A stretch of 63,537 bases of DNA from NCBI GenBank assembly GCA_009930425.1, contig RZYE01000001.1, forward strand, positions 1-63,537, in the 5' to 3' direction. The stretch's first letter is position 1; each line of letters starts with the position of its first letter. The notes under the pieces were generated by a model. It made no database searches. It worked only from the letters and a program-made list of their open reading frames with translations, and was not told where the DNA came from. Shown piece by piece: positions 9,467 to 28,917 of the stretch. Source of the DNA: Actinomycetota bacterium (GTDB lineage: Bacteria > Actinomycetota > Actinomycetes > Actinomycetales > Actinomycetaceae). A program made the position numbers and the translations under genes.

Positions 9467-10219
9467 ATGAGGATCTGCGGGCGCTGCGGCGCGACGGTCA
9501 CGGCAGACCGTTGCGGCCTCTGCGGCGCGCCGGCCTCCGACGCTCAGCCGGCACCCGCCGCCCCGAGGACCGCAACCCGCCCCAACCCGGCGGCAGGCCT
9601 CCCCTCTCCCTCGGTTACGGCGAGCCGTCCCCCTGCGGTCCCGACGACGGCGCCTCCCCTCCCCGCGCCCGCCGCGCCCGCCGCCACCGCCTCCACGCCG
9701 TTGGCGGCGTCGACGGCGACAAGCGCGAGGCGTCCACCGATCGCCATGATCGCAGGCGCCGCCGTCCTGACCGTCGCCCTGGTGGCGGGCTGGGCCCTGA
9801 CCCGTGACCAACCCGGGCAGCCGGTAGCCGCGCCATTCGGCTCCACCGGAACGGAGGGCACGACGCCCGCATCAGGCGCGGGGGCCACGGCCGCGCAGTC
9901 CCCGGAGACCTTCCCGGACGTGGTGGTCCCACCGGGATCCAAGGAGTGCGGCCGGTTCGGAAGCGGGCCCCTCGCGGCAGTCGGCACCGCCAACGAGACC
10001 ACGAGCTGCCCGTTCTCCCTCAACGTCCACACCGAGTACCTCGCGTCCGGCCTGGACGGCACGCCAGGGCAGGTCACCGCGTGGTCCCCCGTGACGGAGA
10101 AGTGGTACACCCTCGATTGCTCCGGATCGCAGCCGGTGCTGTGCACGGGTGGAGTCGCCGCGCGGGTGATCCTCTACGGCGGGAGCCTGGTGATCTCCGC
10201 GGACGCGGCGGAGTGGTGA
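9467..10219 (+). CDS. Zinc-ribbon - Pro-rich linker - TM - Cys-containing ectodomain protein
   Basis: Internal ATG of track ORF 9374..10219. MRICGRCGATVTADRCGLCG (CxxC...CxxC) is followed by a Pro/Ala-rich stretch and the TM helix IAMIAGAAVLTVALVAGWAL. A ~130-aa C-terminal domain carries four Cys. Confidence 0.7.
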   Translation: MRICGRCGATVTADRCGLCGAPASDAQPAPAAPRTATRPNPAAGLPSPSVTASRPPAVPTTAPPLPAPAAPAATASTPLAASTATSARRPPIAMIAGAAVLTVALVAGWALTRDQPGQPVAAPFGSTGTEGTTPASGAGATAAQSPETFPDVVVPPGSKECGRFGSGPLAAVGTANETTSCPFSLNVHTEYLASGLDGTPGQVTAWSPVTEKWYTLDCSGSQPVLCTGGVAARVILYGGSLVISADAAEW

Positions 10220-10228
10220 GGAGCTGGG

Positions 10229-13200
10229 ATGTCCGCTGACGATCGGCAGCGCCGGGGGCGCCGGATCCACGTCGAGGGCGTGGGCTCCAACTGGGAGGCG
10301 CCGAGCCCACCGGCAGGCACGCCACGCCCACCGGGAAGCCCGACGACGCCGCGCACCCAGGACAACCCCGCCAACCCCCACCGGCCGCTCATGCCGCCCG
10401 ATCACGGTCGCGACGCCGCCGGTCGCCCTGCCACCGGCTCCCGGCCTGCCACCGACTCGCTCGCTGGCGCGGCCGCCGCGCACCGCGTCGAGGCGGAGCG
10501 CGCCAACGTCCAGCAGCGGATGACCTCGATCGCCCGCCGGCTCACCGCCCTGCGGACCGCGCTTCCGGACCTGCGGGAAGCCGAGATCGCCGCCGCCGAG
10601 GACAAGGTCATCGCCATGCGCGCCGACGCCGAGGCCAGGCGTGCCGACGCCGTCGCGGCAGCCGAACGGATCCACCTCTCAACCCTCACAAGCACGAGCG
10701 ATCGGCTCCGTGCCCTCGTCGCCGAGCTCGCCCCGGGTCCGGCCGCAGCGGACTTCACTGCCCCCGACTTCACCGCCCAGGAAGGCCCGCCCACCTCCAC
10801 CGCCCCCGCGAGACACACCCGCTTCGGCCACCTGGGCGAGGCCCCGAGCACGGTCCCGGCTGTCGCGCCACTCATCGACCACCCGGGCTGGTACGTGTCC
10901 GCACCAGACCGGCAGGGAGTCGACCTCGCGTTCGCCGCCACGGTGCGGGTCCTCGCGCAGGCCCCGGTCAAGCACGTCGTGGTGGACGTCTTCGACCCAC
11001 GCCTCACCGGCGCGTTCGGCCGCCTCGCCCCGCTGCGGGCCGTCAATGGCGCCACGTTCCCGATCCCTGCCTCGGACGCGCGGTCCTTCGCGGACCGGCT
11101 CGGCTCAGTCCTGGACGTCGCTGTCCGGAACGTCGAACTCGTGGTGGCCAACGGCGCCCGATCGCTGACAGACCTGTGGCGTCGGCAGGGCATCCCGGAG
11201 GGGACGCTTCGGCTCGTCGTCGTCCTCGGGTACCCGTACGGCGTGGACGGCCCGCTGCACGAGCTGCTCGTCCGCACCGCGTCCGCGGCCGGCATGTCCG
11301 GAACCACGCTGCTCGTGGTCGAGGACCCCGGCGCCCGGGCCGCCCAGGACGTCTCCCCGGACCAGTTGCGGCAGGCGCTCCACCGGATCTCCGCGTCCGA
11401 CGGCGCTTGGCTCGCGGATGGCTTCCCCCTCCCCGTGACACCCGACGGCGCAGCCCCCGACTCCGTCGTCGCCGCCGTCCTCGGCAACGCCTCCGAGGCG
11501 GCGCGCTCAGTCACCGGGCCGGTGGTCCCGCTGCGAGGCCTCCTCCGCAGCGACCTCGAGAACCCGTGGTGCCACGACTCCGCCGAGTCGCTGGAGGCCG
11601 TGATCGGGGAGGCGAACCGGCAACCCCTCGAGCTGTCGCTGCGGACCGAGAACCCACCGCACCCGAACGTGCTCATCGGCGGCGCCGTCGGGCAGGGGAA
11701 GTCGAACCTCCTCCTCGACATCATCTACTCCCTCGCCGTGAGATACGGCCCGGACCAGCTCGAACTCCACCTCCTCGACTTCAAGCGCGGCCTCGAGTTC
11801 AAGCGCTTCGACGCCGGCCCGGACGGCACGGGCTGGCTCCCCCACGTCCGCGTCCTCAGCCTCGAGTCCAACCAGGAGTTCGGGATCGCGGTGCTCCGGC
11901 ACATCGACGAGGAGATGGTCCGCCGTTCGCACCTGTTCAAGGCGGCGGGCGCCAACTCGATCAACGCCTACCGGGAGGAGACCGGGCAGGTCCTCCCGCG
12001 CGTCCTCCTCGTGATCGACGAGTTCCACATCCTGTTCGAGGGCGAGGACGAGATCGTCGAGCAGGCGGTGGAGTTGATGGACCGCCTCGCGAAGCAGGGC
12101 CGCGCCTACGGCATCCACCTCCTGCTGGCCTCCCAGACCACCTCGGGCGTCAGGGGCCTGGCGCTGAAGGGCGACTCGATCTTCGCCCAGTTCCCGCTGC
12201 GGATGTCGCTGAAGAACACCCCGCAGGAGTCACAGGCGATCCTCTCGGAGGGAAACAAGGCGGCAGCGGACCTGACCTACCGCGGCGAGGTCATCCTCAA
12301 CCGGAACTACGGGTCGGACCCCGCCGGCTCGAACATCCGCGGCATCGCGGCCTTCGCCGAGCCCGAGGACATGTCCTCCATCCAGCGAGCCCTCTGGGAA
12401 CGCTCCGCCGGGGCCCCGCCGCTGGTGTTCGCAGGCCGGGACTACGCCCGCTGGGACGAGGACCAGTTCACCGCCCACCGCGCCGCCTCCGCCGAGTCCG
12501 CCGACGACGGCGCGCTCACCCTCTGGGTGGGCCGTCCCATCGCGATCACGTCCGAGCCGTTCACGCTCACGCTCGAGGCAGACGCGGACCAGGCGGTCGC
12601 GGTCGTCGGCCCGGGAGGCGAGGTGGCTGCAGCGGGGCTGCGATCCATGACCCTGACCGCGTGCCACTCCCTCGCACCGCGGGGCGGCTCGCTCGTGATC
12701 CTCGACGGCCTCGGCACGGCCGGCTGGACCGCCGAGGTGATGGCCCACGCCCAGGACCTCGGGATGGAGACCTGGGTCGTCGAGCGGGACCACATCGCAG
12801 CGTGGCTGCGCACGGAACTGCCCGGCCGGCTGGCCGAACGCCGGGCGAGCGCGCCGATGCTGGTGCTCGGCCTGGGACTGCAACGCGCCCGCGAGATGGA
12901 CGTGAGCGACGCCGTCGACGAGGACTCGTTCGAGGCCTCCCCCACGGCGCGTGACCAGCTCCGCCGCCTCGCGACCGAGGGCGCGCTCGCGGGCGTGCAC
13001 CTCATCGGGTGGTGGTCGACCCTGCGCGCGCTCGAGGCGGACCTCGGGCCGATGCTGGAGGGGATCGCCCACGTGGTCACCGCTGACCTGGGACGCGACG
13101 AGCTCCGCTCGATCGCTGGGCCCACCGTGCAAAGGGTCTCCGGCAGTCCCCGGCTCGGGGTCCACAGTCGCGACGGCGAGGGCGCGCTCGTGACCGTGGT

Positions 13201-13243
13201 GCCGTTCGATCCGTACGGCCGGACCGGAGGAGGCAACGAGTGA
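10229..13243 (+). CDS. FtsK/SpoIIIE-family P-loop ATPase, soluble, apparently tri-modular with one intact module
   Basis: GAGGAG SD lies 5 nt upstream. Walker A GGAVGQGKS is at 11678-11704; Walker B is RVLLVIDEFHILF; the family motif is GIHLLLASQT. Flanking modules look degenerate (HVVVDVFDPRL...; AVAVVGPGGEVAAAG). The N-terminal ~130 aa are disordered or coiled-coil. No TM helix. Confidence 0.85.
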   Translation: MSADDRQRRGRRIHVEGVGSNWEAPSPPAGTPRPPGSPTTPRTQDNPANPHRPLMPPDHGRDAAGRPATGSRPATDSLAGAAAAHRVEAERANVQQRMTSIARRLTALRTALPDLREAEIAAAEDKVIAMRADAEARRADAVAAAERIHLSTLTSTSDRLRALVAELAPGPAAADFTAPDFTAQEGPPTSTAPARHTRFGHLGEAPSTVPAVAPLIDHPGWYVSAPDRQGVDLAFAATVRVLAQAPVKHVVVDVFDPRLTGAFGRLAPLRAVNGATFPIPASDARSFADRLGSVLDVAVRNVELVVANGARSLTDLWRRQGIPEGTLRLVVVLGYPYGVDGPLHELLVRTASAAGMSGTTLLVVEDPGARAAQDVSPDQLRQALHRISASDGAWLADGFPLPVTPDGAAPDSVVAAVLGNASEAARSVTGPVVPLRGLLRSDLENPWCHDSAESLEAVIGEANRQPLELSLRTENPPHPNVLIGGAVGQGKSNLLLDIIYSLAVRYGPDQLELHLLDFKRGLEFKRFDAGPDGTGWLPHVRVLSLESNQEFGIAVLRHIDEEMVRRSHLFKAAGANSINAYREETGQVLPRVLLVIDEFHILFEGEDEIVEQAVELMDRLAKQGRAYGIHLLLASQTTSGVRGLALKGDSIFAQFPLRMSLKNTPQESQAILSEGNKAAADLTYRGEVILNRNYGSDPAGSNIRGIAAFAEPEDMSSIQRALWERSAGAPPLVFAGRDYARWDEDQFTAHRAASAESADDGALTLWVGRPIAITSEPFTLTLEADADQAVAVVGPGGEVAAAGLRSMTLTACHSLAPRGGSLVILDGLGTAGWTAEVMAHAQDLGMETWVVERDHIAAWLRTELPGRLAERRASAPMLVLGLGLQRAREMDVSDAVDEDSFEASPTARDQLRRLATEGALAGVHLIGWWSTLRALEADLGPMLEGIAHVVTADLGRDELRSIAGPTVQRVSGSPRLGVHSRDGEGALVTVVPFDPYGRTGGGNE

Positions 13244-13782
13244 CCACCACCCATGATCCCGCCTTCAGCGAGTACCTCGAGGCGTTGGGTGCCCTCGTCG
13301 AGTTGCCCGGGCACCGGGACGAGTCGCTCGCGCAGGCGCGCCTGGTGGGCCGGGCCGAGGTGGACTCGGCGATGGCCGAGCTGCGTGACCTGCGCACCGC
13401 CCTCGCCAGCTGCGAGGACGACGTCGCACGGCTCACGTCCCGGATGGCGCGCCTGGGCGCGCGCACGCGGATGGACCTCGACGACGACGCACCACCCGAG
13501 GCGCCGGTCGGCAGCGTGGCCGAGGCCTGCCGCCTCGTGGAGGCCCTGCGAGCCGACCTGTCCGCGGCCGAGGGGGCCTGGAGCTGGGTGGAACGGGCCC
13601 TGCCGCAGCTCGAACGACAGCCGGATCCGGGACCGGTCGCCCCCGTGCCAAACGTGACGGGGCACGGCACCCCACCTGTCGCCGCGCAGGAGCCGCCCGG
13701 ACGTCCCGGCACCCGCGTGTGGGGTGTGCTCGCCGCAATCGCGCTCGTCCTCGCCGTCATCCTCGTCCTGTTGGTCCTCTGA
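13240..13782 (+). CDS. Coiled-coil protein with a C-terminal tail-anchor TM helix
   Basis: GTGA start/stop overlap with the FtsK-like gene. Helical heptad-like N-terminal part. The C-terminus is VWGVLAAIALVLAVILVLLVL. Confidence 0.6.
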   Translation: MTTTHDPAFSEYLEALGALVELPGHRDESLAQARLVGRAEVDSAMAELRDLRTALASCEDDVARLTSRMARLGARTRMDLDDDAPPEAPVGSVAEACRLVEALRADLSAAEGAWSWVERALPQLERQPDPGPVAPVPNVTGHGTPPVAAQEPPGRPGTRVWGVLAAIALVLAVILVLLVL

Positions 13783-13792
13783 GGGAGTCACA

Positions 13793-14251
13793 ATGCAGCA
13801 ATCACGCCAGCGCCGCCGCCTCGTGCAGCAGGAACCGCTGCCTGCCGTCCAGGCCAACGCGGTGACGCAGTCGGCCGCCGACTCCCTCGTGATGCGCAAG
13901 CGCAAGGTGCGGCGTTCGGCGGACCTCGTGCGCGCGATCACCCAGGTGGACGTCACCACAGACCCCGCCGCCCAGCGTGAGCTGATGGAGTGGATCGAGG
14001 GCGCCTACGCCGAACGAGGCAGCGGCGTGCTGATCGGCCTGTTCAGCCACTGCTACCTGGGGCATCCGTACGTCGACCACCAGCTGGACCTCTCCGGCCG
14101 GATCATCACGCACTTCACGGCCTCCGATACCGTCCCACCGGGCTTCGACCTTGCCCGGCCGCTGGCCCGCTCGACCGCCTACGCCTTCATCGAGGTGTAC
14201 GGGGACGGCCAGGTCGTACCGGTACGGAACGACGGCACGTCAGCAATCTGA
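13793..14251 (+). CDS. Hypothetical 152-aa protein with a His/Cys cluster
   Basis: ATG follows a GAGGGAG SD, 10 nt after the upstream stop. The SHCYLGHPYVDH cluster (HCx3Hx4H) suggests metal binding. No family recognised. Confidence 0.5.
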   Translation: MQQSRQRRRLVQQEPLPAVQANAVTQSAADSLVMRKRKVRRSADLVRAITQVDVTTDPAAQRELMEWIEGAYAERGSGVLIGLFSHCYLGHPYVDHQLDLSGRIITHFTASDTVPPGFDLARPLARSTAYAFIEVYGDGQVVPVRNDGTSAI

Positions 14252-14276
14252 AGCAAGGAACAAGGAGAAACACCGA

Positions 14277-16025
14277 ATGACTGAAACCGTACGAATCGAC
14301 TTGTCGCCACTCGTCCGTGAGATCGAGGGCATGGGTCGCGTCCTCGGCAGGGCCATCGAGGAGGTCGGATCGGAGGTCGGCGTCGTCAGGCGTGACATCC
14401 GCCTGACCAGCGACGAACTGCAGCAGCTCCGCAAGGAGTTCGAGAACTACGTGCAGCAGGCCACCCGCACCGCCGCCGTGCAGCAGTCGGAGGTCCGGGT
14501 CGGCAACCTGAAGAGCCAGCTCGACCGCGAGTTCGGGCACCACTCCATCGTGCGGCGCACCTCAGTGGGCCTCCTCCAGGCCTTCGACATCGGCAACGTG
14601 TCCAACACGACTGCCACGTCGGTCGCCGAGGAGCTGATGATCCAGACACCTCGGTACTGGCTCGCGCCCGTACTCGTGGCCCTCGCCGCCTGGTCCCACG
14701 ACAACGAGGAAATGGCCGAGAAGTCTGTCCAGGAGGCGTACTCACGGGACAAGAACAAGACCAGCCTGTTCTTCGCGCTCGTGCTCAGGAGGCAGGGACG
14801 GCAGGAGGCCGCGGTGCGGTGGCTGCGGCACTACCTCACCTCCCTCGACCCGGCCGCCCTGACCCGCGAGTTCGCCATCATCCTCGAGGCCACCTCACAC
14901 GACGCGTTCGGCACCTCCGGACAGGCGGTGCTGAGTGAGGTCATGGACACCTGGCGAGAAGAGTTGCGGAGCCGGCAGGAGATCGTCGAGTCCCAGATCC
15001 AGCAGTGGGCCGGAGAGATCGGCATGCACCGCCAGATCCTCGCCCGCTCGGCCTATCCCACCCTCGAAACCCTGGCCTCGGAGTGGACGTGGATCAAGCG
15101 CCAACTCGAGTCCGCGTCCGCGCTTCCGGAGGTGATCGACAAGTACGAGGCGATCCGAGAGTTCGACTCCCCCCTTCCCCGCGTCCTTGAGGACCTGCTG
15201 GACGACATCCTCGACCGGCTGGTCACCGACTATGACGAGGAGGAACTGCCACTGCGCCGCGAGGTGGTCTTCCACGAGGCCGTCGTGGAAGAGGCCGGAG
15301 ATCTCGACCGTGCCCGGGCGCGTGCCGACCTGGTGCAGGAGGCGCTCGAGGAGACCACCGACGTGGTGTCCCTCCAGACGAGCGCCGCAATCCACCCCGA
15401 GACCATCGGCGTGAGCACCCAGACGCAGCGCATCGCCATCGGGCTCGGGCAGGACGACTTCCGGACCGCGGTGGGACGGTACTGCGCCGCGTACCGCGGA
15501 GAGGCCATCTCCACCGTCACCTACACCTTCGGGTCCGGCCACTCCAACTACGCGAAGACCTACGGCTTCAAGGGGTGTTCGGTCCGCTCCGACACCCCGG
15601 AGGAGACGGGCATCGACCGCATCACGCAGACATGGATGGACACCCTGCGCGAGCACATCCAGAACATCTCGTTCAAGAACTCCTGGTACACCAAGCCCTC
15701 GATCATCGCCGGTGCCATCGCCCTCCTCCTGCTGCTCATCCCCGCCTTCCGCGTGGCCGGAGTGGTCGCGCTGATCATCGGCGCCGGCATCGTGTACTAC
15801 CGAGGCGAGCAGGAGAAGAAGAGGTGCGCGCAGGCGGTGCGAGCGGTCGAGCAGGTCCGCCAGCAGGCGATCGACCACTCCATCTCCCTCTACCGGGACG
15901 CGAACGCACAACTCGTGGACGCGATGCTCGTCTACGAGGAACTGGATGCCCAGGAGTCCGACCTCCTGCGGCTCATCGAAACCTGGCCGACCGCGAAGAG
16001 CACGATCGAAGGAGCAGTCCTGTGA
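14277..16025 (+). CDS. Hypothetical 582-aa helical protein with a C-terminal TM hairpin
   Basis: ATG follows an AAGGAG SD. The amino-acid composition is coding-like. The C-terminal KPSIIAGAIALLLLLIPAFRVAGVVALIIGAGIVYY forms two TM helices. No family recognised. Confidence 0.7.
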   Translation: MTETVRIDLSPLVREIEGMGRVLGRAIEEVGSEVGVVRRDIRLTSDELQQLRKEFENYVQQATRTAAVQQSEVRVGNLKSQLDREFGHHSIVRRTSVGLLQAFDIGNVSNTTATSVAEELMIQTPRYWLAPVLVALAAWSHDNEEMAEKSVQEAYSRDKNKTSLFFALVLRRQGRQEAAVRWLRHYLTSLDPAALTREFAIILEATSHDAFGTSGQAVLSEVMDTWREELRSRQEIVESQIQQWAGEIGMHRQILARSAYPTLETLASEWTWIKRQLESASALPEVIDKYEAIREFDSPLPRVLEDLLDDILDRLVTDYDEEELPLRREVVFHEAVVEEAGDLDRARARADLVQEALEETTDVVSLQTSAAIHPETIGVSTQTQRIAIGLGQDDFRTAVGRYCAAYRGEAISTVTYTFGSGHSNYAKTYGFKGCSVRSDTPEETGIDRITQTWMDTLREHIQNISFKNSWYTKPSIIAGAIALLLLLIPAFRVAGVVALIIGAGIVYYRGEQEKKRCAQAVRAVEQVRQQAIDHSISLYRDANAQLVDAMLVYEELDAQESDLLRLIETWPTAKSTIEGAVL

Positions 16026-16294
16026 GCGAGAATGACACCACCCTCATGACCACGCCGGCCGAGGACGGCGCTCCGACCGTCGTCGTGCGCCGTCCACGCA
16101 GCAGCGGGAAGTTCGTCCCGCGGAGCACACCCACCCCCGATTCCGACGAGGTCATCATCGGGCGCAACCTGCTCACCTCACGAAACCGCGACGGCAAGGA
16201 GCAGACGCCGCGGGAGCGGCGGATCGCGGGCGACTTGCCGGCGTGGGAGCCGCTTCCACCCGGCGAGTTGTTCGTCAGGCGGGGCCGTCACTGA
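16022..16294 (+). CDS. Small (about 90 aa) disordered basic protein
   Basis: An in-frame GTG overlaps the upstream stop (GTGA). An alternative ATG lies at 16046. Placement inside a coupled operon is the only support. Confidence 0.4.
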   Translation: MSENDTTLMTTPAEDGAPTVVVRRPRSSGKFVPRSTPTPDSDEVIIGRNLLTSRNRDGKEQTPRERRIAGDLPAWEPLPPGELFVRRGRH

Positions 16295-16296
16295 CC

Positions 16297-16935
16297 GTGC
16301 ACCCGAATCCCCGACTGCAGGGCTCCAGCCCGTACGAGACCTGGGTGATGACGATGCGGGCGTGGGAGGCCGACCCGACCACCCCGCTCGATCACCTTCC
16401 CGTCCTGACGGACGAGACGTTCACGCCGGAGACCTTCTCCCGCCTCTTCGCACACGTGCTGAAGGCCATGCAGGCGGTCTCGGACCGGTGGCAGCATCTG
16501 CTCGTGCAGGCGTGGGCGACGTCGTCGAACTCCTTCGAGTTGGGGCGCGAACTCGTCCAGTTGCGAGCGACCCTCTCGCGCCGGCTGCAACTGGCAGGAC
16601 ACCCGTCGCTCCCGGAGAAGGCTCGCGAGATCCTGCTTCGGGACACTCGGGCGGCGATCTCGAGGTACCAGCGGGACCTCGAGGACAACGTCCGACGCCT
16701 CCACTCCTCGGGACACGTGGACCGCAAGGAACTCGACCGGATGCTCATGGTGGTTCGGGAGAACTCGTTCGAAGGCCTCCTGACCTACAACGTCAGCCAC
16801 GACGGGAGCCGGGCCATGGCCGCTCCGCTGCCGCCCCCGGGACCGCACCACCACGAGCCCACCACCATCCGCGCCACCAGGTGGGACCACCGCCGCGTGG
16901 TTCCCCTCCCCTCCGAAGAGAGCCAGACCCCCTGA
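16297..16935 (+). CDS. Hypothetical helical protein (about 212 aa)
   Basis: The GTG at 16297 lies 2 nt after the upstream stop; alternative starts are at 16345 and 16348. The stop overlaps the AAA+ start (TGATG). Composition is helical and no family is recognised. Confidence 0.55.
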   Translation: MHPNPRLQGSSPYETWVMTMRAWEADPTTPLDHLPVLTDETFTPETFSRLFAHVLKAMQAVSDRWQHLLVQAWATSSNSFELGRELVQLRATLSRRLQLAGHPSLPEKAREILLRDTRAAISRYQRDLEDNVRRLHSSGHVDRKELDRMLMVVRENSFEGLLTYNVSHDGSRAMAAPLPPPGPHHHEPTTIRATRWDHRRVVPLPSEESQTP

Positions 16936-18482
16936 TGCCAAACCAGGCCGAGACCCAAGAGATCGTCCACCGCTACCTGAGCGCGCGGGTGCCGCTCATC
17001 GTCATCCGCTCGATCGAGCCGAACCGGGCGATGAGCATCCTCACCTCCTGCGCGTCACGGCTGCGCTCGATGTCCTACTACGAGCACTCCCGCACCGAAG
17101 GCCTGCGGGAGCTGCTGAGTGGCCACAACCTGGTGGACGAGACCTCATTGACGGTGGCGCTCGAGCACGCGCGCACCACCTTCAAGTCCAGGACGAACGT
17201 CAACTTCGTGTTCACGGACGTCGAGGACCTCGACCAGGAGAGTTCCACCTCACGGCACTTCGCCGAGATGGTGCGACTGGCGGAATCGCGGCAGGGAACG
17301 ATCGTCCTGGTTGTCTCGAACCCCGTCTGGAACGGTCTCGGGCGGCTCGGGATGAGCGTGGTGCTCGACCTGCCCACCACGGACGAGCTCGCGGAGGTCC
17401 TCGGCGGCATGGTGGATGACCACCGGGGAGTGGTGCAGATCGAGTGGCAGTACGACGAGTTGCGGCGCGCGGCGGAGATCCTCTCGGGCATCACCGAGAT
17501 GGAGGCAATCAACGTGCTCGCCACCATGCTGGCAAAGGGGAGTCTCCACAACTCGGACCTCGCGGAACTCTCCACCTTCAAGGACCGCATCTTCGGGGAC
17601 CTGAACGGGGTCGAGCGCGTCCGGTTGAAGGAGGACTACAAGACGGGAGGTCTCCGCAACCTGCGGAAGTGGTTGGTGCACCGCGAGGTGCTCATGAACT
17701 CCGACCTGTCGCACACCACGCTGCGCCCCCCGAAGGGGGTGCTCCTGGTGGGCGTGCCGGGCTGCGGGAAGTCGCTCTCCGCCAAGGCGATCGCCTCCGA
17801 GTGGCGGCTCCCGCTGTACCGGCTGGACATGTCCGGGGTCCTCGGCATGTACGTCGGCCAATCGGAGAGCCGCCTGCGCGAGGCGCTCGAGACCGCCGAC
17901 CGGGTGGCACCCTGCGTCCTCTGGATCGACGAGATCGAGAAGGCACTGGCGACGGGTCCCGGGGATTCCGGGACCTCACGCCGGCTGATCGGGCAGTTCC
18001 TCTTCTGGCTGCAGGAATCGACCGCCAAGGTCTTCCTCGTGGCGACCTCCAACGACGTCAGTTCTCTGCCCCCCGAACTCCTCCGGAAGGGCCGGTTCGA
18101 CGAGATGTTCTTCGTTGACCTCCCCGATGAGGCCGACCGCGAGGAGATCCTCCGGATGTACTTCGAGAAGTACCTCCGGTACGACGTCCCACCGGACCTC
18201 ATGCGCCGCCTCGTGGAGGCCTCGGCAGGCTTCTCCGGCGCGGACATCGAGTCAACCGTGCACGACATGGAGGCGTCCCGGTTCGCCACTGGTCGGACCG
18301 GCCTCCCATCCGACGCCGAGTTGATGGCGTACTTCCAGAACGTCGTGCCCTTCAGCCAGACCAACGCCGAGGAGGTCGCCGCGATCCGGCAGTGGGGTCT
18401 CAGCCGCTGCGTGCCGGCTGGGAGCGCGCCGGCCGGAGGAACCCCTGGCACCAGCACGAGCCGCCGTGTCGTGATCGTGTAG
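16935..18482 (+). CDS. AAA+ ATPase, classical (Cdc48/FtsH-like) clade, with a P-loop-less N-terminal domain
   Basis: Walker A GVPGCGKS at 17751-17774. Walker B is CVLWIDEIEKA. VFLVATSNDVSSLPPELLRKGRFDEMFFVDLP is the second region of homology. The N-terminal ~230 aa (PLIVIRSIEPNRAMSIL...IVLVVSNP) look like a degenerate AAA-like module. Confidence 0.85.
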   Translation: MPNQAETQEIVHRYLSARVPLIVIRSIEPNRAMSILTSCASRLRSMSYYEHSRTEGLRELLSGHNLVDETSLTVALEHARTTFKSRTNVNFVFTDVEDLDQESSTSRHFAEMVRLAESRQGTIVLVVSNPVWNGLGRLGMSVVLDLPTTDELAEVLGGMVDDHRGVVQIEWQYDELRRAAEILSGITEMEAINVLATMLAKGSLHNSDLAELSTFKDRIFGDLNGVERVRLKEDYKTGGLRNLRKWLVHREVLMNSDLSHTTLRPPKGVLLVGVPGCGKSLSAKAIASEWRLPLYRLDMSGVLGMYVGQSESRLREALETADRVAPCVLWIDEIEKALATGPGDSGTSRRLIGQFLFWLQESTAKVFLVATSNDVSSLPPELLRKGRFDEMFFVDLPDEADREEILRMYFEKYLRYDVPPDLMRRLVEASAGFSGADIESTVHDMEASRFATGRTGLPSDAELMAYFQNVVPFSQTNAEEVAAIRQWGLSRCVPAGSAPAGGTPGTSTSRRVVIV

Positions 18483-18491
18483 GAGGCTCTC

Positions 18492-19577
18492 ATGGGAATC
18501 TGCGAACGGTGCGGCGCCACGGTCACGGGAGACAGGTGCTCCCTGTGCGGGTCCACCAAGATCGTCACCCGCAACCTCCCGCCGGTGCGGCCACCGGCAC
18601 CAGGCCCTGTCACCCCGCCGAGGGCGGTCACGCCGCCCGCGCCCACCACGCCTCCCCCACCACCAGTCATGACAGCCGCTCCGGTTCCGCCCCCACCGAG
18701 TGGGTCTCGCGATTCCGCCGGCACCTCGACGCCGGGCGGGGGCAGGCGTCCGTTGCTCGTCGTGGGAGGCCTCGCCGTACTCGCCGTCGCTGTGGGCGCG
18801 TTCGCCCTCAGTGGCGTCGGATCCGACGACGTCGCCACGCAACCGACGCAACCGGCCGCCAATGCGGTGGCGACAGTCCCGGCGGTCGCGGCCGAGCAGC
18901 CGGTTGTCGAGCCCACCCCCGCACCGTCTCCCGAGGTGACCGTGCCTGCGGCTCCTCAGCTCTCCGGCTGCTGGGACGTCGAGGCGGATGCAGCAGGACT
19001 GGCGAGCTACGCCGCAGCACTCGGCACTGCCGCGTCGAGCCCGGTTGCGATCAGCCAGTTCGACTCCAGCCTCGCCGCGATGGAGGGCACGTGCGGCGTG
19101 GTCTACACGACCGACGTCGCCGTCTCCGTGGCGCGTCAGCCGGGCATTCCGGGTGGGATCCAGGAGGCGGCCGACTCGTACGTGGCCGCCCGGGTCCGAT
19201 TCCCCGCACCGGACGGCTCACTGGTACGGCAGCGGATCGACTCGCCCGAGAAGAACATCTCCTGCGAACTGGAGGAGTCCTCGGTGGGCTGCTCGATCCT
19301 CGAGCGGAGCTACCCGGTTGCGGAGGACTGCCCGGACAGGCTGTTCTCGGCGGTCCTCGTCAACGGGGACGCGGAGAAGGCCTGCGGCACCCAATGGCTG
19401 GGTGAGGTGGGCGACGACTTCTACCACATCGACTACGGCGAGACCGTGCAGTTCGGCTTCATGGCGTGCACCGTCGAGGCGGACGGGCCGCGCCGCGGGA
19501 TGACCTGCTGGGACACCCGCACGGGGCACTCGCTCCGGCTTTCGCGCGCGTTGTTCCAGATCGACAACACGCTGTAG
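18492..19577 (+). CDS. Zinc-ribbon - Pro-rich linker - TM - Cys-rich ectodomain protein
   Basis: AGGAGG SD. MGICERCGATVTGDRCSLCG is followed by a Pro-rich stretch and the TM helix LLVVGGLAVLAVAVGAFAL. A ~220-aa domain carries eight Cys. The architecture matches 9467..10219. Confidence 0.75.
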   Translation: MGICERCGATVTGDRCSLCGSTKIVTRNLPPVRPPAPGPVTPPRAVTPPAPTTPPPPPVMTAAPVPPPPSGSRDSAGTSTPGGGRRPLLVVGGLAVLAVAVGAFALSGVGSDDVATQPTQPAANAVATVPAVAAEQPVVEPTPAPSPEVTVPAAPQLSGCWDVEADAAGLASYAAALGTAASSPVAISQFDSSLAAMEGTCGVVYTTDVAVSVARQPGIPGGIQEAADSYVAARVRFPAPDGSLVRQRIDSPEKNISCELEESSVGCSILERSYPVAEDCPDRLFSAVLVNGDAEKACGTQWLGEVGDDFYHIDYGETVQFGFMACTVEADGPRRGMTCWDTRTGHSLRLSRALFQIDNTL

Positions 19578-19596: not shown

Positions 19597-20175
19597 TCAG
19601 GCCTTCGGCTTCCAGAGCCGGGGACCTGCAGCCGGGGGCGGCGGTCGGGTGTCGGAGTAGAGCGGCTTGGCGATGGGTTCGCCAACCATCTCGTCACGTG
19701 TCTTCAGCGCCTCGGCGTAGGTGTCGAAACCTGTGTGGACACCCTCCACCAACCTGACTCCTGCATCCTTGACGCCGGCATCCAGGGGCAGCGCGCTCAT
19801 GATGGCGGGCGGGACGTCACCCCCGGACAGTGCCACGATGACCACCGTCCCACCGGCCACGGCGACCGTCTTGACGCCGCCGACCACTGATCGGACTGCG
19901 CCCCCGAAACCGCCGGAACCACCCGCGAGCCGCTTGGCGAAGGCGTCGGCCTTCGAATCGAACCTTGCCAGCGCTTCGTCCGCCGCCCGGCACCGGCGCT
20001 CGGCCTCGGCGAGTGCGGCGACGACGGCGGAGCCCGACTGGCCGCCGTGGCGCGGCACCGACTGGCCGAGCGATCGGGCGAGCCTCGCTGCCTCGGCGAG
20101 TTCGCGGCGCGTGGGCCCGGCGGCATCCCCGACCGCGCGAACGCCCTCTGCCAGCCGCTGGAGGTCAGACGCCAT
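19597..20175 (-). CDS. Hypothetical protein: N-terminal helical hairpin, Gly-rich hydrophobic segment, small C-terminal domain
   Basis: The ATG lies 5 nt after the upstream stop. MASDLQRLAEGVRAVGDAAGPTRRELAEAARLARSLG is helical. GGSGGFGGAVRSVVGGVKTVAVAGGTVVIVALSGG is a Gly-zipper-like segment. Confidence 0.6.
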   Translation of the reverse strand: MASDLQRLAEGVRAVGDAAGPTRRELAEAARLARSLGQSVPRHGGQSGSAVVAALAEAERRCRAADEALARFDSKADAFAKRLAGGSGGFGGAVRSVVGGVKTVAVAGGTVVIVALSGGDVPPAIMSALPLDAGVKDAGVRLVEGVHTGFDTYAEALKTRDEMVGEPIAKPLYSDTRPPPPAAGPRLWKPKA

Positions 20176-20180
20176 GGCTG

Positions 20181-20468
20181 CTACTTCGCCTTTCCCTTGG
20201 ACTTGCGGGCCGCCTCGCGCTGCGCGGCCTCAGCCGCCGCTCGACGTGCCGCCTGTGCGGCCCGGGCGTACGACTGTGCAGCCTGCCGAGCACGTGCAGC
20301 AGCTTGTTGGGTGAGGTCGAGCATGGCCCGGTCCTCCCCGGACGCGGTGCCACCGATCTGCTGCGAGACCGCGGCGCCGAGGGAGCCGAGGCGGCGCGCC
20401 ACCTCGGTCATCGAGGACGCAGACTGCTGAGCCCGGCGCGCGATGCTCTCGAATTCCTGGGCGGACAC
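20181..20468 (-). CDS. Small helical-hairpin protein, paralogue of 20476..20736
   Basis: The GTG at 20468 lies 7 nt after the upstream stop. The central IGGTASGED turn is flanked by Ala/Gln-rich helices. The C-terminus is a Lys-rich tail. Confidence 0.55.
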   Translation of the reverse strand: MSAQEFESIARRAQQSASSMTEVARRLGSLGAAVSQQIGGTASGEDRAMLDLTQQAAARARQAAQSYARAAQAARRAAAEAAQREAARKSKGKAK

Positions 20469-20475
20469 GGTCCCG

Positions 20476-20736
20476 CTACAACGACTGCCCGTAGCTCGAG
20501 GCGATCCTCGAAGCATTGGCGAGCGCGGCAGTCGCCTGCTTCACGGCCTTGGAGGCCTGTTGCAGCGCTGCCACGACCTCCTGGTCCTTGCGCTGCGCGC
20601 TGCCACCGATGGCCGCCTGCACCTGCTGCGTCTGCTGCCCGAACTGCTTCTCGAACTGAGCCAGGTTCGACCCGGTCCTCTTCGCAGATTCGGCAAGACC
20701 GTTGACCGTCTGCTTGAGCTGGTTCAATTGCGACAC
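20476..20736 (-). CDS. Small (86 aa) helical-hairpin protein, WXG100-sized but without WXG
   Basis: GGAAGGAG SD upstream. Two predicted helices are joined by IGGSAQRKD. Its size and Gln/Ala richness resemble ESAT-6-like hairpins. Confidence 0.65.
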   Translation of the reverse strand: MSQLNQLKQTVNGLAESAKRTGSNLAQFEKQFGQQTQQVQAAIGGSAQRKDQEVVAALQQASKAVKQATAALANASRIASSYGQSL

Positions 20737-20938
20737 GTCCGCACTCCTTCCACGCCTATGACCGTGGCATCATGGCACTAATGACGTCCCAAACAGCATC
20801 TCAGCCACAGGCCGGACAGGACGGTCGAGGGTTCGTGAATTGAAGGCCCACCAGTTTTCGGATTGATAGTCTGTCCCCAGAGATGCATTCGCCGCCGGCA
20901 GCACCCAATCGGGCCTCCTGCGAGTTCCCTAGTCCCGC

Positions 20939-20952
20939 GGTTGCTCGCAACC
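20939..20952. promoter_or_regulatory. Inverted repeat GGTTGC-TC-GCAACC upstream of the IMPase/TIR operon
   Basis: 6-bp arms with a 2-nt spacer, 24 nt upstream of ATG 20976, in the divergent intergenic region 20737-20975. Candidate operator only. Confidence 0.2.
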
Positions 20953-20975
20953 TGCCGCCGGGGAAGGAAGGGGTA

Positions 20976-21743
20976 ATGGTGCCAGAGTCGTGGGCCGCGG
21001 AGGCCGAACTCGCTCTCCGAGCGGCCCAAGCAGCCTCGAGGCACGCTCAGGAACGACGGGACTCCCTACAGGTCGTCTCAATCGCCGCGCACGATGTCAA
21101 GCTCGAACAAGATATTGAATGCCAGCGGGTTGCTGCTGACCTGATTCGAGCCTCTCGTCCAACCCACACGATCCTCGGCGAAGAACCGGGCAGCGATGTC
21201 GAGCAGTCAACACACTCTTGGCTGATCGATCCCATTGATGGAACCTTCAATTACTCCCGAGGACTTCCCTACTGGTGCACGTCCGTAGCTCTGCGGAGCG
21301 CCGGTCACACCGTCGCCGGCGCAGTAGTGGCGCCAGAGTTGGGACTCACCTTCACTGCCACCTCCACCGGGCCAAGCTCGGTCAACGGTCGCGTCCTCCC
21401 CCCGATCGCGACAAGAGAGCCGCAGTTCGCGTCTTTGCACATTTCTCTGTCGGACGCTCCCGAAGCGGGAGATTTCCTTTCACTTGCTGCATCGAGATTC
21501 CAGAAGATCCGACTCATGGGATCCATCGCACTAGATCTCTGTTTCGTGGCGCTGGGTGCAGCCGATGCGATGGTCGCTCTCCGCGCCTTCCCCTGGGACT
21601 CTGAGGCAGGCCTGCTCATAGCCGGTAGGGTGGGAGCCCGTACCGTCGTCATCGATCGCCCAAAGGGTCAAGTCCTTCTCTGCGGTAGCGCCAAGCTCTT
21701 GACCCTCCTACGAGAGTTCCCGTTCGGCGTGATGCCAGAATGA
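20976..21743 (+). CDS. Inositol-monophosphatase-family (IMPase/CysQ-like) phosphatase
   Basis: ATG follows GGAAGGAAGGGG. Motifs are ILGEEPG, WLIDPIDGTFNY and PWDSEAGLLIA. The stop overlaps the next start (ATGA). Confidence 0.85.
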   Translation: MVPESWAAEAELALRAAQAASRHAQERRDSLQVVSIAAHDVKLEQDIECQRVAADLIRASRPTHTILGEEPGSDVEQSTHSWLIDPIDGTFNYSRGLPYWCTSVALRSAGHTVAGAVVAPELGLTFTATSTGPSSVNGRVLPPIATREPQFASLHISLSDAPEAGDFLSLAASRFQKIRLMGSIALDLCFVALGAADAMVALRAFPWDSEAGLLIAGRVGARTVVIDRPKGQVLLCGSAKLLTLLREFPFGVMPE

Positions 21744-23035
21744 CGCAGGTCGTCTTCATCAGCCACTCGAGCATGGACGCGGAGACGGCCCGAGAACTGG
21801 CGGATGCGCTCCGGTCGCGCGGGATGGATCCGTGGCTCGCGTCGGAGAGGGTGACGCCGGGAGGATACTACGCGTCCGAGATCACCCGAGCCATCGCGCA
21901 AGCGGACGCTGTCGTTGTCCTGCTCTCACGGGCGTCCATCACCTCTCCACAGGTGAAGCGGGAGGTGGACAGCGCTGTCTCCGCCGACCGACCCTTGATT
22001 CCTCTGGACCTGCACGGCATCCGGACTCTCTCAGAGCTACCCGACGAGTGGCAGTACCTGCTGCGACTCACGCAATGGCACCGTCACACTCACGCCTCGG
22101 ACACCGCGCATCATCTGGAACGGATACTTCTCGGTGAAGCCTCCTCGGGGCCCACCGTCCGAGCCAGTGCACCTCGCGCAGAACCCGCAACGGTGACGAT
22201 CGCCGACAGCAACCTGCTCGTGGTGAAGGCGTTCCTACTCGCATCGCGTCTGGCCAACGAACTAGGCGCTCTGGGTGCCGCGCCTCACATGGTCAACGCC
22301 CCCTGGTCCAGCAACCTATTGGACCGGGCGGTCGACGGCGAGCTCGACTTCCTGATCTACAACGAAGTCGCTGCACGCAGCTTCGCTGAAAGGCACCCTG
22401 ACGAACTTGTCGTCGTTGCACACGCCGGTCATTCGATGGGGGGCAACAACTTCGGAGTTCTCGTCAGCAACGATTCACGGTGGCGAGATGTGGATCTGGG
22501 AACGCTGGGAACGCTTCTGGATCACGGTGTCCGCATCTACCTCGGGCTAAACAGCGACCGGGCTCGCAACTTCTCGCTTGCGACCGGGCTGACGTTGCTC
22601 GAATTGCGGGAGCGCGGAGTCGTGGTAGTGAACGCAGGCGAACCGGGCCTTGAGATCCTGGCGAGCGATCCCGACGCCATCATCGTCACCGGTCAGAACG
22701 CGCGGTTCGAAGCTCGCTTGAGCGGCGCGGCGTACGAGGTGGGAGGCTTTGAGAGGCTGCCACCTCAGACTCGAAAATCCCTTCGCCAAGGGTCCTCAAA
22801 TGTCCTGCTCGCTCGACTTGAGACCGCCAACCAACTAGGACTTGATCTCCCTAGTCTTGGGGCCCGTGTCAAGCGGAATGCCGCTGAGTGCTGGGCAGAC
22901 GACTCCGAGTTTGAGTCGCTAGTGAGTACGTTGGCTGGATGCTGCGACTTCCAGTTCGCGCGTCGACAAGATCGAATCTTGATCACAAAGCACGTCCTGT
23001 ACGAGACATACCGGGCAGGTGAACCAGTCCTGTGA
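21740..23035 (+). CDS. TIR domain fused to a type-2 binding-protein (NMT1/SsuA-like) fold
   Basis: VFISHSSMDAETARELADALRSRGMDPWLASERV...AVVVLLSRASITSPQVKREV is a TIR domain with the conserved Glu. The C-terminal ~290 aa (TIADSNLLVVKAFLLASRLANELGALGAAPHMVNAPWSSNLLDRAVDGELDFLIYN...) follow the SBP pattern. No signal peptide. Confidence 0.75.
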   Translation: MTQVVFISHSSMDAETARELADALRSRGMDPWLASERVTPGGYYASEITRAIAQADAVVVLLSRASITSPQVKREVDSAVSADRPLIPLDLHGIRTLSELPDEWQYLLRLTQWHRHTHASDTAHHLERILLGEASSGPTVRASAPRAEPATVTIADSNLLVVKAFLLASRLANELGALGAAPHMVNAPWSSNLLDRAVDGELDFLIYNEVAARSFAERHPDELVVVAHAGHSMGGNNFGVLVSNDSRWRDVDLGTLGTLLDHGVRIYLGLNSDRARNFSLATGLTLLELRERGVVVVNAGEPGLEILASDPDAIIVTGQNARFEARLSGAAYEVGGFERLPPQTRKSLRQGSSNVLLARLETANQLGLDLPSLGARVKRNAAECWADDSEFESLVSTLAGCCDFQFARRQDRILITKHVLYETYRAGEPVL

Positions 23036-23877
23036 GTGCACTGCGATACCTCGTGGTCGGGAGTTTCAACCTCGACACGGTGATCCGGCTCAGATCCTTT
23101 CCGCCACCGCACTCGAAGGTCCAGGCTGAGGAGATCTGGCGAGGCCCAGGCGGGTCTGCGGCCATCACCGCCGCCTGGCTCGCTCGACAGGGCTCCGCGG
23201 TATCTCTCGTCGCGGCGTCAGGGGGAGATCACGAGGCGCACGAGGCGATTGGGCGACTCACGGCTACCGGAGTCAACTGCCGGTTCGTGACAACCACCAG
23301 CCCTGAGTCATCGAGAGCCTACTCACTTGTCACCGAGACAGAGAAGAGGATCATCACACGCCCGTCCGGTCAGCGGCTCCCAGCCCTAAAGTCAGCCGAA
23401 GAGGTCCTACACGAGTTCGACGCCGTTCACATCGCGTCGGCAGCCAGCCCGGAACTAATGGCGTTCGCTACCACCTGCAGAGAGAGACGTATCCCCTTCA
23501 GCGTCGAACTCGCAGGGCGCCGAATGCCGGAAATCACATGCATGGCGGAACGCACCTTCTTGAATTCAGATGAACTCAGCCTCCTCTTTCCGTCGGGATG
23601 GAGTGACTTCCGGACGGACGTAGGGGGCACGCTCGTCGCTCGCAATGGGCGCCTAGTCGTCACCCGCGGTCGTATCGGGGCATCCGAACACGGCGAAGAC
23701 CTGACGGTGACGGCGCCGACCGTGGCTGTGACCTCCGTCGACCGTACCGGGGGAGGAGACGCGTTCAACGCCGGATACCTCTACGAGTGGCAGACCGGCG
23801 GGACGCCGGAGGAGTGCCTTCAGGCCGGGCTACGATTGGCGACATCGGCAATCACCAGAATGGGGGGCCTACCGTGA
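23032..23877 (+). CDS. PfkB-family (ribokinase-like) carbohydrate/nucleoside kinase
   Basis: GTGA overlap with the upstream stop. N-terminal motif VVGSFNLDTV. C-terminal signature VDRTGGGDAFNAGYL. Confidence 0.85.
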   Translation: MSALRYLVVGSFNLDTVIRLRSFPPPHSKVQAEEIWRGPGGSAAITAAWLARQGSAVSLVAASGGDHEAHEAIGRLTATGVNCRFVTTTSPESSRAYSLVTETEKRIITRPSGQRLPALKSAEEVLHEFDAVHIASAASPELMAFATTCRERRIPFSVELAGRRMPEITCMAERTFLNSDELSLLFPSGWSDFRTDVGGTLVARNGRLVVTRGRIGASEHGEDLTVTAPTVAVTSVDRTGGGDAFNAGYLYEWQTGGTPEECLQAGLRLATSAITRMGGLP

Positions 23878-28291: not shown

Positions 28292-28913
28292 TGCGACACG
28301 GGTGCGGCACGGTGGTGGATGCCGACGAGATCCTCTGCCCGGGCTGTGGCGGAGCGGTCACCGAGGAGACGCTGAGCCCGCTCGAGGAGGCGGCGACCAC
28401 GGTCCTGCCTGCCGGCGCCGCTGCCCCTCCCCCCGCGGTTGGCCCGAGCGAGGGAGAGCGGCTCTGCCCCACCGAGTGGTGCCGCCGTCCCCTGCTCCCC
28501 GGGGCGACCGTTTGCGACGGCTGCCACCGTCCCGTCCCGCCCGCCACCCCGCAGCCAGGCCCAGGACCGTCCGTGCCGGCGCCCACCGGACGGCCCGCCC
28601 TCGCCACCGCGACGTACGCGCTCGTCCTGCCCGGGGCGGTGCGGCTCGTCCTCCGTGCCGGCGAGACGCTCGAGTTGGGGCGTGAGGCGGGCCCCGCCGT
28701 CGTCAGGGCCACGCTCGCCCCCCTCGACACGGTCTCGCGGCGCCACGCCAGCGTGACCGCCGCGCCGGACGGGGCGGTGGTACGCGACCTGAACTCCGCC
28801 AACGGCACGTTCGTGGACGATGTGGCCGTCTCGGCGGCGATCACCGTCCGGCCGCCCGTGGTGCTGCGGCTCGGGCAGACGGTCAGGATCGGTCTCGTGG
28901 AAGGGGAGGGGTC

Positions 28914-28917
<4 letters not shown>
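28279..28917 (+). CDS. Double zinc-ribbon - FHA domain protein
   Basis: CGTVVDADEILCPGCG and CPTEWCRRPLLPGATVCDGC are the two ribbons. The FHA core is LELGRE...VSRRHASV...NSANGTFVDD (GR, SxxH, NG). It overlaps both neighbouring genes. Confidence 0.8.

Follow-up and report, generated by a model that had tools for sequence, protein, structure and literature searches.

Genes and coordinates of the locus

The locus examined here raises the question of what an operon that pairs an FtsK-like ATPase with an AAA+ protein does in an actinobacterium, and where its functional unit begins and ends. The operon (genes g1 to g9) lies on the plus strand between positions 9467 and 19577 of a 63,537-nucleotide (nt) stretch of contig RZYE01000001.1, from an Actinomycetota bacterium of the family Actinomycetaceae; this whole stretch is referred to as the window. 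An initial annotation of the window had treated the nine genes as a single unit, possibly a divergent translocation, secretion or conflict machine, but its functional unit was drawn wrongly and consists of two separable modules plus two local genes. The locus joins a five-gene core (g4-g8), a cassette resembling a type VII secretion system (T7SS) and composed of g2, g3 and three hairpin genes, and the local genes g1 and g9. In the best explanation that we can offer, which we regard as having an even chance of being correct, a membrane-tethered AAA+ chaperone core gates the type VII-like, EccC-driven deployment of a hairpin-domain effector in microbial conflict.

The nine open reading frames (ORFs) proposed initially are real and tightly packed, with matching start and stop codons, and the Shine-Dalgarno strings and the GTGA and TGATG overlaps cited for them were found in the sequence (Table 1). 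The gaps that separate each of g2 to g9 from the preceding gene are 9, -4, 10, 25, -4, 2, -1 and 9 nt, respectively. Judged from its homologues, g7 most likely starts at the GTG at 16297, 2 nt past the g6 stop, since they conserve a YETWV motif upstream of the ATG at 16348. A promoter and terminator scan gave nothing above shuffled sequence. The GC content is 0.73 over g2/g3 and 0.66 over g5/g8, while that of third codon positions (GC3) is 0.85-0.92 in all nine genes. GC mosaicism as a sign of module fusion was rejected, since GC3 is uniform across g2/g3 and g5/g8 at 0.87-0.92 and the difference between them thus reflects amino-acid composition. Transmembrane (TM) segments were called by a hydropathy scan, which bore out the membrane assignments made earlier for g3 (a C-terminal anchor) and g5 (a two-helix hairpin) and detected no TM helices in g2, g4, g6, g7 or g8.

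Table 1. Coordinates of the genes of the locus, of related loci with Hsp70 genes, and of neighbouring genes in the window (aa, amino acids; AF2, AlphaFold2)
Feature	Position	Strand	Description
g1	9467..10219	+	250 aa; N-terminal zinc ribbon, Pro-rich linker, TM helix, Cys-containing ectodomain
g2	10229..13243	+	1004-aa soluble EccC-like FtsK/SpoIIIE ATPase; Pfam, NCBIfam and PDB comparisons
g3	13240..13782	+	180-aa tail-anchored coiled-coil protein, TM 156-180
g4	13793..14251	+	152-aa core protein; alignments A2 and A7, AF2 model
g5	14277..16025	+	582-aa core scaffold; alignment A1, AF2 model
g6	16022..16294	+	90-aa core protein; alignment A3
g7	16297..16935	+	Core protein, ~212 aa, helical; its disordered tail terminates in RR[VI][VI]; alignment A4
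g8	16935..18482	+	515-aa AAA+ protein; N-domain (1-235), classical AAA module, C-terminal RRVV tail
g9	18492..19577	+	361-aa bitopic protein; zinc ribbon, Pro-rich linker, one TM helix, Cys-rich ectodomain
Effector-type protein C	19597..20175	-	192 aa
Hairpin B	20181..20468	-	95-aa paralogue of hairpin A, IGGTA turn; E=0.004, in register
Hairpin A	20476..20736	-	86-aa helix-turn-helix protein, IGGS turn, YGQSL tail
Hsp70-linked g2 loci	L085:6863-12673; L088:3858-8748; L089:149-4377; L090:3810-9700		Core-free g2 homologues translationally coupled to Hsp70
WD40 and TIR_2 genes	596-5879	+	918-aa WD40 beta-propeller overlapping the start of an 844-aa protein with N-terminal TIR_2
Four-gene run	20883-24485	+	Inositol monophosphatase-family protein, 431-aa TIR_2 protein whose C-terminal domain is unassigned, PfkB kinase, LigT/2',5'-RNA-ligase-like phosphoesterase
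AAA_2 gene pair	24628-27656	+	410-aa unassigned gene overlapping a 599-aa ClpB-type AAA_2 ATPase
Protein kinase	28686-31565	+	959-aa Ser/Thr protein kinase
TIR-NB-ARC-TPR genes	35921-38914, 39758-43066	+	Two large tandem paralogous-looking STAND/NLR-like proteins
Tubulin_2 gene pair	50174-56470	-	Tubulin_2 (PF13809) protein, ~1,100 aa, beside a ~990-aa gene with a weak vWA match
RyR gene	56307-58985	+	892-aa protein with RyR (ryanodine-receptor repeat) and PGDYG domain matches

Distribution and modularity of the core and the cassette

A profile scan covering 185,579 species, each represented by one genome, yielded 197 core loci, 80 of which were fetched (L001-L080); together with loci outside this set (L081, L082 and L084-L091), more than 85 related loci were included in the synteny comparison. 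The search with g5 returned at least 617 homologues at 52-79% identity, all unnamed, and the g5 family amounts to 764 clusters at 50% identity (634 at E<=1e-10) among 1.84 billion cluster representatives, with members nearly all 550-600 aa long. Core loci were found in Streptomyces, Mycobacterium, Gordonia, Rhodococcus, Corynebacterium, Actinomyces and Gardnerella, as well as in Microbacterium, Arthrobacter, Dietzia, Propionibacteriaceae and Acidimicrobiia. According to tblastn, the g4-g5-g6-g7-g8 order and strand are kept in nearly all 80 loci, which span many actinobacterial orders, and g6 occupies the same position in 79 of them. Gene order in other genomes, on which the initial annotation had staked its proposal, is therefore strongly conserved for g4-g8. 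A phage origin of the core was rejected, since a search of 2.9 million viral contigs gave no relatives of the g5 family.

The nine genes are not conserved as one unit. Only about 18 of the 80 core loci carry g2 directly upstream of the core, and the g2/g3 and hairpin genes are separable from g4-g8. The conserved unit also extends past 19577, where the interval had been closed, to the three minus-strand genes at 19597-20736, and it excludes g1 and g9. The hairpin genes are confined to loci with a detected g2 homologue, with the exception of L034, where the contig ends upstream of the core. In Mycolicibacterium tusciae the genes for the FtsK-like protein, g3, g4-g8 and the 86-aa, 115-aa and 170-aa proteins form one co-directional run of ten genes, and the run in Rhodococcus pyridinivorans is arranged in the same way, although g6 was not called; the core is thus embedded in the cassette in this clade.

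The cassette also occurs without the core. A distant clade of g2 homologues (32-36% identity) that lacks g4-g8 was found in Kribbella, Nocardia, Nonomuraea, Streptosporangiales and metagenomes; a g3-like membrane protein is retained there, and the 86-aa hairpin is present in five of the six sampled loci. Four of these six contain an Hsp70 gene directly upstream of g2 and overlapping it, where the core would be, and three of the four also carry GrpE and a DnaJ-like (DnaJ/TPR) gene. The presence of an Hsp70 module in the place of the core is the strongest argument for regarding the core as the chaperone/unfoldase stage of the cassette. To our knowledge, a dedicated Hsp70 system coupled to an EccC-like ATPase has not been described.

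Other genes take the g2 slot in Streptomyces, Kitasatospora, Embleya, Micromonospora and Actinoplanes; they include a divergent Peptidase_C14 caspase, a 1,400-aa CHAT protein and, often, a RES toxin gene after an unassigned gene (possibly an antitoxin) and a Macro-domain protein. CHAT genes were also found beside the core in one Rhodococcus and one Propionibacteriaceae genome; in the latter (L006) a TIR gene overlaps the start of g4 and a second TIR gene follows g8. No adaptor domain common to the FtsK-like, CHAT, caspase, Macro and F10 families was detected with hhalign. Defence-type neighbours at other loci include HEPN-helicase-REase, SNF2 and Tubulin_2 genes. Gene content, synteny, modularity, domain identities and the motif enrichment described below are direct observations.

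In Streptomyces herbicida a core-plus-caspase/CHAT locus with identical layout was found on scaffolds 1 and 3 (L046 and L048), which represents either a recent duplication or assembly redundancy.

The g4-g8 core proteins

Family searches gave no match of g4 to g7 to any Pfam, NCBIfam or PADLOC model, leaving four of the five core proteins without a family assignment; both of those modelled (g4 and g5) match no known fold. The g4 protein is a small alpha/beta protein. Its Arg-rich N-terminus is disordered, and the AF2 model (predicted local distance difference test score, pLDDT, 84.6) shows three helices together with a beta unit of five strands; residues C87, D95, H96, H107, R122, E134 and Y136 are invariant in both alignments. 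Its family profile gave no meaningful match to PDB sequences, and a Foldseek search of the model against PDB and BFVD returned nothing at E<0.5.

The g5 protein is all-alpha in its AF2 model (pLDDT 82.6). A helix of 95 residues forms the N-terminus and another long helix the C-terminus; TPR-like repeats are also present, and the TM hairpin maps to residues ~470-507. A conserved acidic segment, LEDLLDDILD..DEEELPLRREV, contains the invariant residues E305, D309, D310, D320, E322 and E323. Foldseek gave nothing under E=0.027 against PDB for this model, the best low-probability matches being generic TPR proteins and the AhlB/SmhB alpha-pore-forming toxins. A hint from single-linkage clustering that g7 could be a g5 paralogue was rejected, since BLASTP gives no alignment between them. 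The g6 protein is disordered save for an invariant C-terminal motif, LPxWEPLPPGE..V.R.

The assignment of g8 to the classical AAA+ proteins was upheld. Its AAA module matches PF00004 (Pfam AAA) with E=6.2e-32, and its nearest relatives in PDB are the D2 domains of p97, Cdc48 and NVL (up to 3.8e-56). The module looks active from its motifs, which comprise Walker A (GVPGCGKS), VLWIDEIE, a YVG pore loop, GRFD and the second region of homology; a YVG pore loop is typical of substrate-threading unfoldases. The N-domain is highly conserved (60% mean column identity in alignment A8), and its profile gave no meaningful match to PDB sequences and no TPR match. It aligns weakly with the AAA domain of the same protein (E=0.04 by hhalign), with Walker B, sensor-1 and 'DLP' in register, and is probably a P-loop-less AAA-like domain.

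A short motif, RR[VI][VI], recurs at the disordered termini of several core proteins. Among g8 and g7 homologues, 95% and 77%, respectively, carry it in their C-terminal 30 residues, and 41% of g4 homologues carry it in their N-terminal 35; the background in other proteins of the loci is 1-3%. In the window it maps to 18450-18482 (g8), 16870-16935 (g7) and 13793-13850 (g4). The only large core protein without the motif is g5, which would be the docking hub for these tails. We know of no comparable docking or targeting motif. In g6 the motif is reversed, as [VI][VI]RR, and precedes the C-terminal motif.

The EccC-like ATPase g2 and its putative membrane anchor g3

The FtsK/SpoIIIE identity of g2 was confirmed: the Pfam FtsK_SpoIIIE domain spans residues 449-638 (E=5.6e-21), and this central module is intact, with Walker A (GGAVGQGKS), Walker B (LLVIDEFH) and the GIHLLLASQT motif. 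The ATPase module is nearest to EccC D1, its best solved relatives being the Thermomonospora EccC (4nh0, 5e-31), EccC5 and YukB, and NCBIfam EccCa matches g2 with 2.6e-27, far under the equivalog cutoff. The N-terminal part is disordered and coiled-coil, and carries an RR[VI]x[VI]xG element (window 10229-10290) related to the RR[VI][VI] motif of the core. Pfam detected no FtsK_gamma or FtsK_alpha domains in g2, and PADLOC gave partial matches to SspH, mad8 and HerA.

Degenerate modules had been proposed on both sides of the g2 centre. Comparison of these flanks with the centre by hhalign gave weak matches (E=3e-4 for the N flank and 6e-3 for the C flank) in which the P-loop, Walker B and GIHLLLASQ positions are in register, and both flanks are probably degenerate P-loop modules. 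When the family profile was compared with PDB sequences, EccC was matched with the central module alone and the flanks were unmatched.

The g3 gene is coupled translationally to g2 through the GTGA overlap and encodes the putative membrane anchor of g2. A g3-type gene follows each g2 homologue sampled (L081, L082, L084-L089 and L091), and TM segments were seen in all seven of the g3-type genes scanned among those loci.

Hairpin proteins and the effector-type protein

The initial annotation had compared the locus with EccC-type motors that act with an AAA+ protein and small helical proteins. The analogy is good, but the helical proteins are not among the unassigned products of the operon; they are encoded by the three convergent minus-strand genes just past 19577. 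Hairpin A is, from sequence comparison, an invariant and weakly WXG100-like partner of the g2 family. Protein C contains an N-terminal hairpin domain of ~90 residues (MASDLQRLA...), after which come a hydrophobic segment rich in Gly and a short tail. An 86-aa hairpin, a 95-115-aa hairpin and a 170-275-aa M(A/S)SDLQ.LA protein recur in g2-bearing loci, in either orientation. The hairpin A hidden Markov model (HMM) matches the hairpin B counterparts in L014, L071 and L001 at 23-35 bits, and the HMMs of the hairpin A and protein C families detect each other and the hairpin B family, which indicates that hairpins A and B and the protein C N-domain are paralogous hairpin domains.

The C-terminal part of protein C relatives differs among genomes. 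In a core-free Kribbella locus, the protein C N-domain HMM matches residues 1-88 of a protein with CdiA_C at its C-terminus; two immunity-like genes, paralogous to each other, come after it. In a core-linked Gardnerella locus the third hairpin protein bears Endonuclea_NS_2 (E=1.7e-15), and in a metagenomic locus (L090) a Gln_amidase toxin gene lies two genes 3' of hairpin A. The same HMM also matches proteins with hydrophobic tails. The protein C family is best read as an effector family with a genome-variable C-terminus, which can be a nuclease, a tRNase-type toxin or a hydrophobic segment as in the window. No immunity genes adjoin the effectors of L014, L071 and L081. A ParB-like motif (G.HR..A) noticed by eye at the C-termini of these three effectors was unsupported by Pfam, and no claim is made for it.

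Comparison with known systems

The initial annotation had excluded both a canonical ESX locus and a conjugative element, which was sustained by Pfam and NCBIfam scans of the window products. No EccB, EccD, EccE or MycP was found among the 12 locus products, the scanned neighbours and the large window ORFs, and no integrase or relaxase among the operon products, the scanned neighbours and the large window ORFs. The locus resembles ESX (T7SSa) in that the g2 module is nearest to EccC D1, in the probably multi-modular architecture of g2, and in the presence of ~90-aa helical hairpins and an AAA+ protein. It differs in that g2 lacks N-terminal TM helices, EccB, EccD, EccE and MycP are missing from the scanned products, and the hairpins fall short of the WXG100 threshold. 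EccA consists of a CbbX-type AAA+ domain with an N-terminal TPR domain, whereas g8 is of the Cdc48/FtsH type, with no NCBIfam EccA match, and TPR-like repeats are found instead in g5, a membrane protein of its own. By its Walker motifs (A and B), its pore loop and its second region of homology, g8 belongs to the classical AAA+ clade of Cdc48, FtsH and proteasomal ATPases. Unlike the DNA translocases FtsK, SpoIIIE and TraB, g2 has neither a gamma domain nor a TM helix, and the scanned neighbourhood contains no relaxase or integrase.

The LXG/Lap systems of T7SSb deploy polymorphic toxins with small helical partners (PMC9600955, PMC10801868). At the family level the locus shares with them a conserved N-terminal hairpin domain, interchangeable C-terminal toxin domains and two adjoining hairpin genes. 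However, Pfam LXG (PF04740) did not match the window effector or eight relatives, there was no Lap (DUF3130/DUF3958) match, the host phylum is Actinomycetota, the hairpin partners are paralogous to the effector N-domain, and EssA, EssB, EsaA and EsaB are not present.

T7SS subtypes have been defined by an EccC/EssC homologue, a WXG100 protein and subtype-specific genes (Garrett et al. 2024, PMC11217815). The locus follows the same logic as T7SSc-T7SSj, with an EccC/EssC homologue, a hairpin protein and specific accessory genes. Every TsxC ATPase described is bound to the membrane and contains four NTPase domains. An unrelated AAA+ protein is part of T7SSf, and T7SSd, the one other subtype from Actinobacteria, comprises FHA domains, a kinase and a large protein with Ig domains (PMC11217815). 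T7SSc-j were rejected, since their ATPases are membrane-bound four-domain proteins and none is described with g3-g8 homologues (PMC11217815). The Esr threat-sensing pathway was also rejected, as it is based on a kinase and an FHA domain.

Among NTP-dependent conflict systems, the MoxR-vWA FtsH-ternary is also centred on an AAA+ chaperone, with alpha-helical proteins and variable effectors (caspase-like, TIR, FtsK), and is enriched in Actinobacteria (PMC7159879). In its FtsH-type protein the first of two AAA domains is inactive and the second active (Kaur et al. 2020, PMC7159879), a two-domain description that g8 resembles. The system was rejected, since g1-g9 have no MoxR or VWA match in Pfam and no shared effector-associated domains were detected; the EACC1-caspase systems of the same authors were rejected as their defining components are absent. 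The g8 AAA module matches the PADLOC and NCBIfam IetA/IteA models (1.7e-25 and 1.4e-21), and the core adjoins proteases in Streptomyces, as might suit IetAS. This system was rejected too, given a score of 77 against a curated cutoff of 510 bits, the lack of an IetS subtilase/S8 protease and the generic nature of classical AAA similarity. The locus therefore falls outside canonical ESX, the described T7SS subtypes and the known defence systems.

Proposed mechanism and alternative explanations

In the proposed mechanism, g5 would tether the g8 AAA+ hexamer, along with g4, g6 and g7, to the cytoplasmic side of the membrane, with docking through the RR[VI][VI] tails of g4, g7 and g8 and the related RR[VI]x[VI] element of g2. 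As the ATP-driven chaperone/unfoldase stage, comparable to EccA or Hsp70, g8 would prime or release the complex of hairpins and effector, and g2, anchored by g3, would recognise the hairpin partners and drive the effector across or into the membrane. Surface input may be added by g1 and g9, and the purpose would be inter-microbial conflict, by toxin delivery or defence. All physical interactions in this scheme, the export step and the biological target are what we infer from the observations above.

Several points weigh against this explanation. Most core loci lack g2, so that secretion through g2 cannot be the primary role of the core. PF06013 (WXG100) matched six of 12 hairpin A members, all below threshold (best E=0.004), and not hairpin A of the window; moreover, the hairpin A profile retrieved no Esx chain and nothing meaningful from PDB sequences. 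Protein C of the window has no toxin domain recognised by Pfam and no adjoining immunity gene. The lack of a TM helix in g2 and of any polytopic channel protein leaves export presumptive, and the binding of the RR[VI][VI] tails by g5 is conjectural. The adjacency of caspase and CHAT genes is mostly seen in relatives of Streptomyces and may partly reflect a shared inherited island, and some loci have the housekeeping neighbours infA/rpsM, argG or trpS.

Part of this evidence bears on other explanations. It seems unlikely that the ten conserved genes (g2-g8 and the hairpins) constitute one new T7SS subtype solely for antibacterial toxin secretion, with g3 and g5 as the channel, g4, g6 and g7 as structural or accessory components and g8 as the EccA equivalent. 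The single operon in Mycolicibacterium and its counterpart in Rhodococcus speak for such a subtype, as do the EccC-like ATPase, the WXG100-like hairpins and the polymorphic toxin domains of relatives, and the published subtypes were delimited likewise (PMC11217815). However, about three quarters of the core loci lack g2 and the hairpins, and g2 and hairpins exist without g4-g8, so that neither set needs the other; in addition, g2 is devoid of the TM helices found in all described EccC/EssC/TsxC proteins (PMC11217815). Little probability is likewise given to intracellular abortive infection against phages, in which the FtsK-like ATPase would sense or engage invading DNA, the AAA+ core would act as a threshold switch, and a linked effector, depending on the genome a hydrophobic hairpin-domain protein, a nuclease, a caspase/CHAT protease or a TIR protein, would kill or arrest the infected cell. 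This would agree with the sporadic occurrence of the core among the species genomes scanned (197 of 185,579), the variety of toxic partners (caspase, CHAT, RES, TIR), the partial PADLOC matches of g2 (SspH, mad8, HerA) and g8 (IetA), the density of TIR-STAND and other conflict genes in the window together with defence-type neighbours elsewhere, and effectors without an adjoining immunity gene in the window, L014, L071 and L081. Against it, g4-g7 match no PADLOC model, g2 is nearest to the protein-translocating EccC and not to DNA pumps, with the gamma DNA-binding domain absent, and the paralogous immunity-like genes after the Kribbella CdiA_C protein are as expected of secreted toxins; the absence of the g5 family from viral contigs says nothing either way on defence.

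The core could also be a housekeeping machine for membrane-protein quality control or for the cell envelope and division, with the adjacency of FtsK-like, caspase and TIR genes being incidental. A classical AAA+ unfoldase combined with a membrane scaffold would suit this role, and so would the loci beside infA/rpsM, argG or trpS. We nevertheless consider it highly improbable, given that only about 200 species genomes carry the core, that Streptomyces herbicida has it on two scaffolds, and that its repeated tight linkage to toxic effectors, seen in the TIR gene overlap of L006 and the overlap with the FtsK cassette, would be unexpected.

Beyond the chaperone-gated deployment of an effector in the window, a wider and more tentative proposal is that g4-g8 may represent an unrecognised class of membrane-tethered AAA+ 'effector-deployment hub', in which g5 would recruit the unfoldase and three orphan proteins through RR[VI][VI], and which would be wired interchangeably to type VII-like export, caspase/CHAT or TIR effectors and be equivalent in function to Hsp70/GrpE/DnaJ and swappable with it. 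That the orphan core is categorically new is, similarly, possible but doubtful. If the chaperone-gated model holds, toxin deployment in Actinobacteria would include a soluble EccC-like motor with a dedicated chaperone stage, outside the described T7SS subtypes, and a role would be found for the large orphan g5 family, which reaches Mycobacterium, Gardnerella, Actinomyces and Streptomyces. The AAA+ core and Hsp70 would be exchangeable ATP-driven front ends for toxic effectors, a testable design rule, and secretion biology would be tied to the caspase/TIR conflict systems that are regarded as forerunners of eukaryotic immunity. Several carriers are cultivable and genetically tractable, so the hypothesis is directly testable.

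Zinc-ribbon membrane proteins at the ends of the operon

The proteins g1 and g9 had been described as zinc-ribbon ectodomain proteins bracketing the operon. They have in common only a 21-residue ribbon (16 of 21 residues identical), and their ectodomains are unrelated. The g1 TM segment lies at about residue 89, with a weaker, near-threshold hydrophobic stretch at about 224, and its Pfam match to DZR (double zinc ribbon) is subthreshold. No homologues of g1 or g9 were found by tblastn in the other fetched loci (80 searched), so they are not a conserved bracket but local additions, g1 being a lineage-specific accessory gene. The slot after g8, which g9 takes in the window, holds a single-pass membrane protein with a variable ectodomain in no fewer than seven unrelated loci, and g9 is a possible surface sensor or accessory protein.

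Conflict genes around the locus

The window is a conflict island with TIR, STAND-type, Tubulin_2/vWA and related genes (Table 1). The four-gene run at 20883-24485 may be a cassette for making and degrading a nucleotide signal, and tandem TIR-NB-ARC-TPR proteins are typical of bacterial NLR-type conflict systems. The TIR domain of the 431-aa TIR_2 protein is 36% identical to the TIR protein encoded after g8 in the Propionibacteriaceae locus L006. Tubulin_2 is also found in another Propionibacteriaceae locus (L005:1102-7099), together with an unassigned 851-aa gene, ~2.4 kb upstream of g4-g8. Very large genes adjoin the system in Mycobacterium and Rhodococcus genomes (L016:331-6744 and L087:473-4861), encoding a 2,137-aa HEPN_Swt1-DUF4011-helicase-REase_MTES_1575 protein and a 1,462-aa helicase-MTES_1575 protein.

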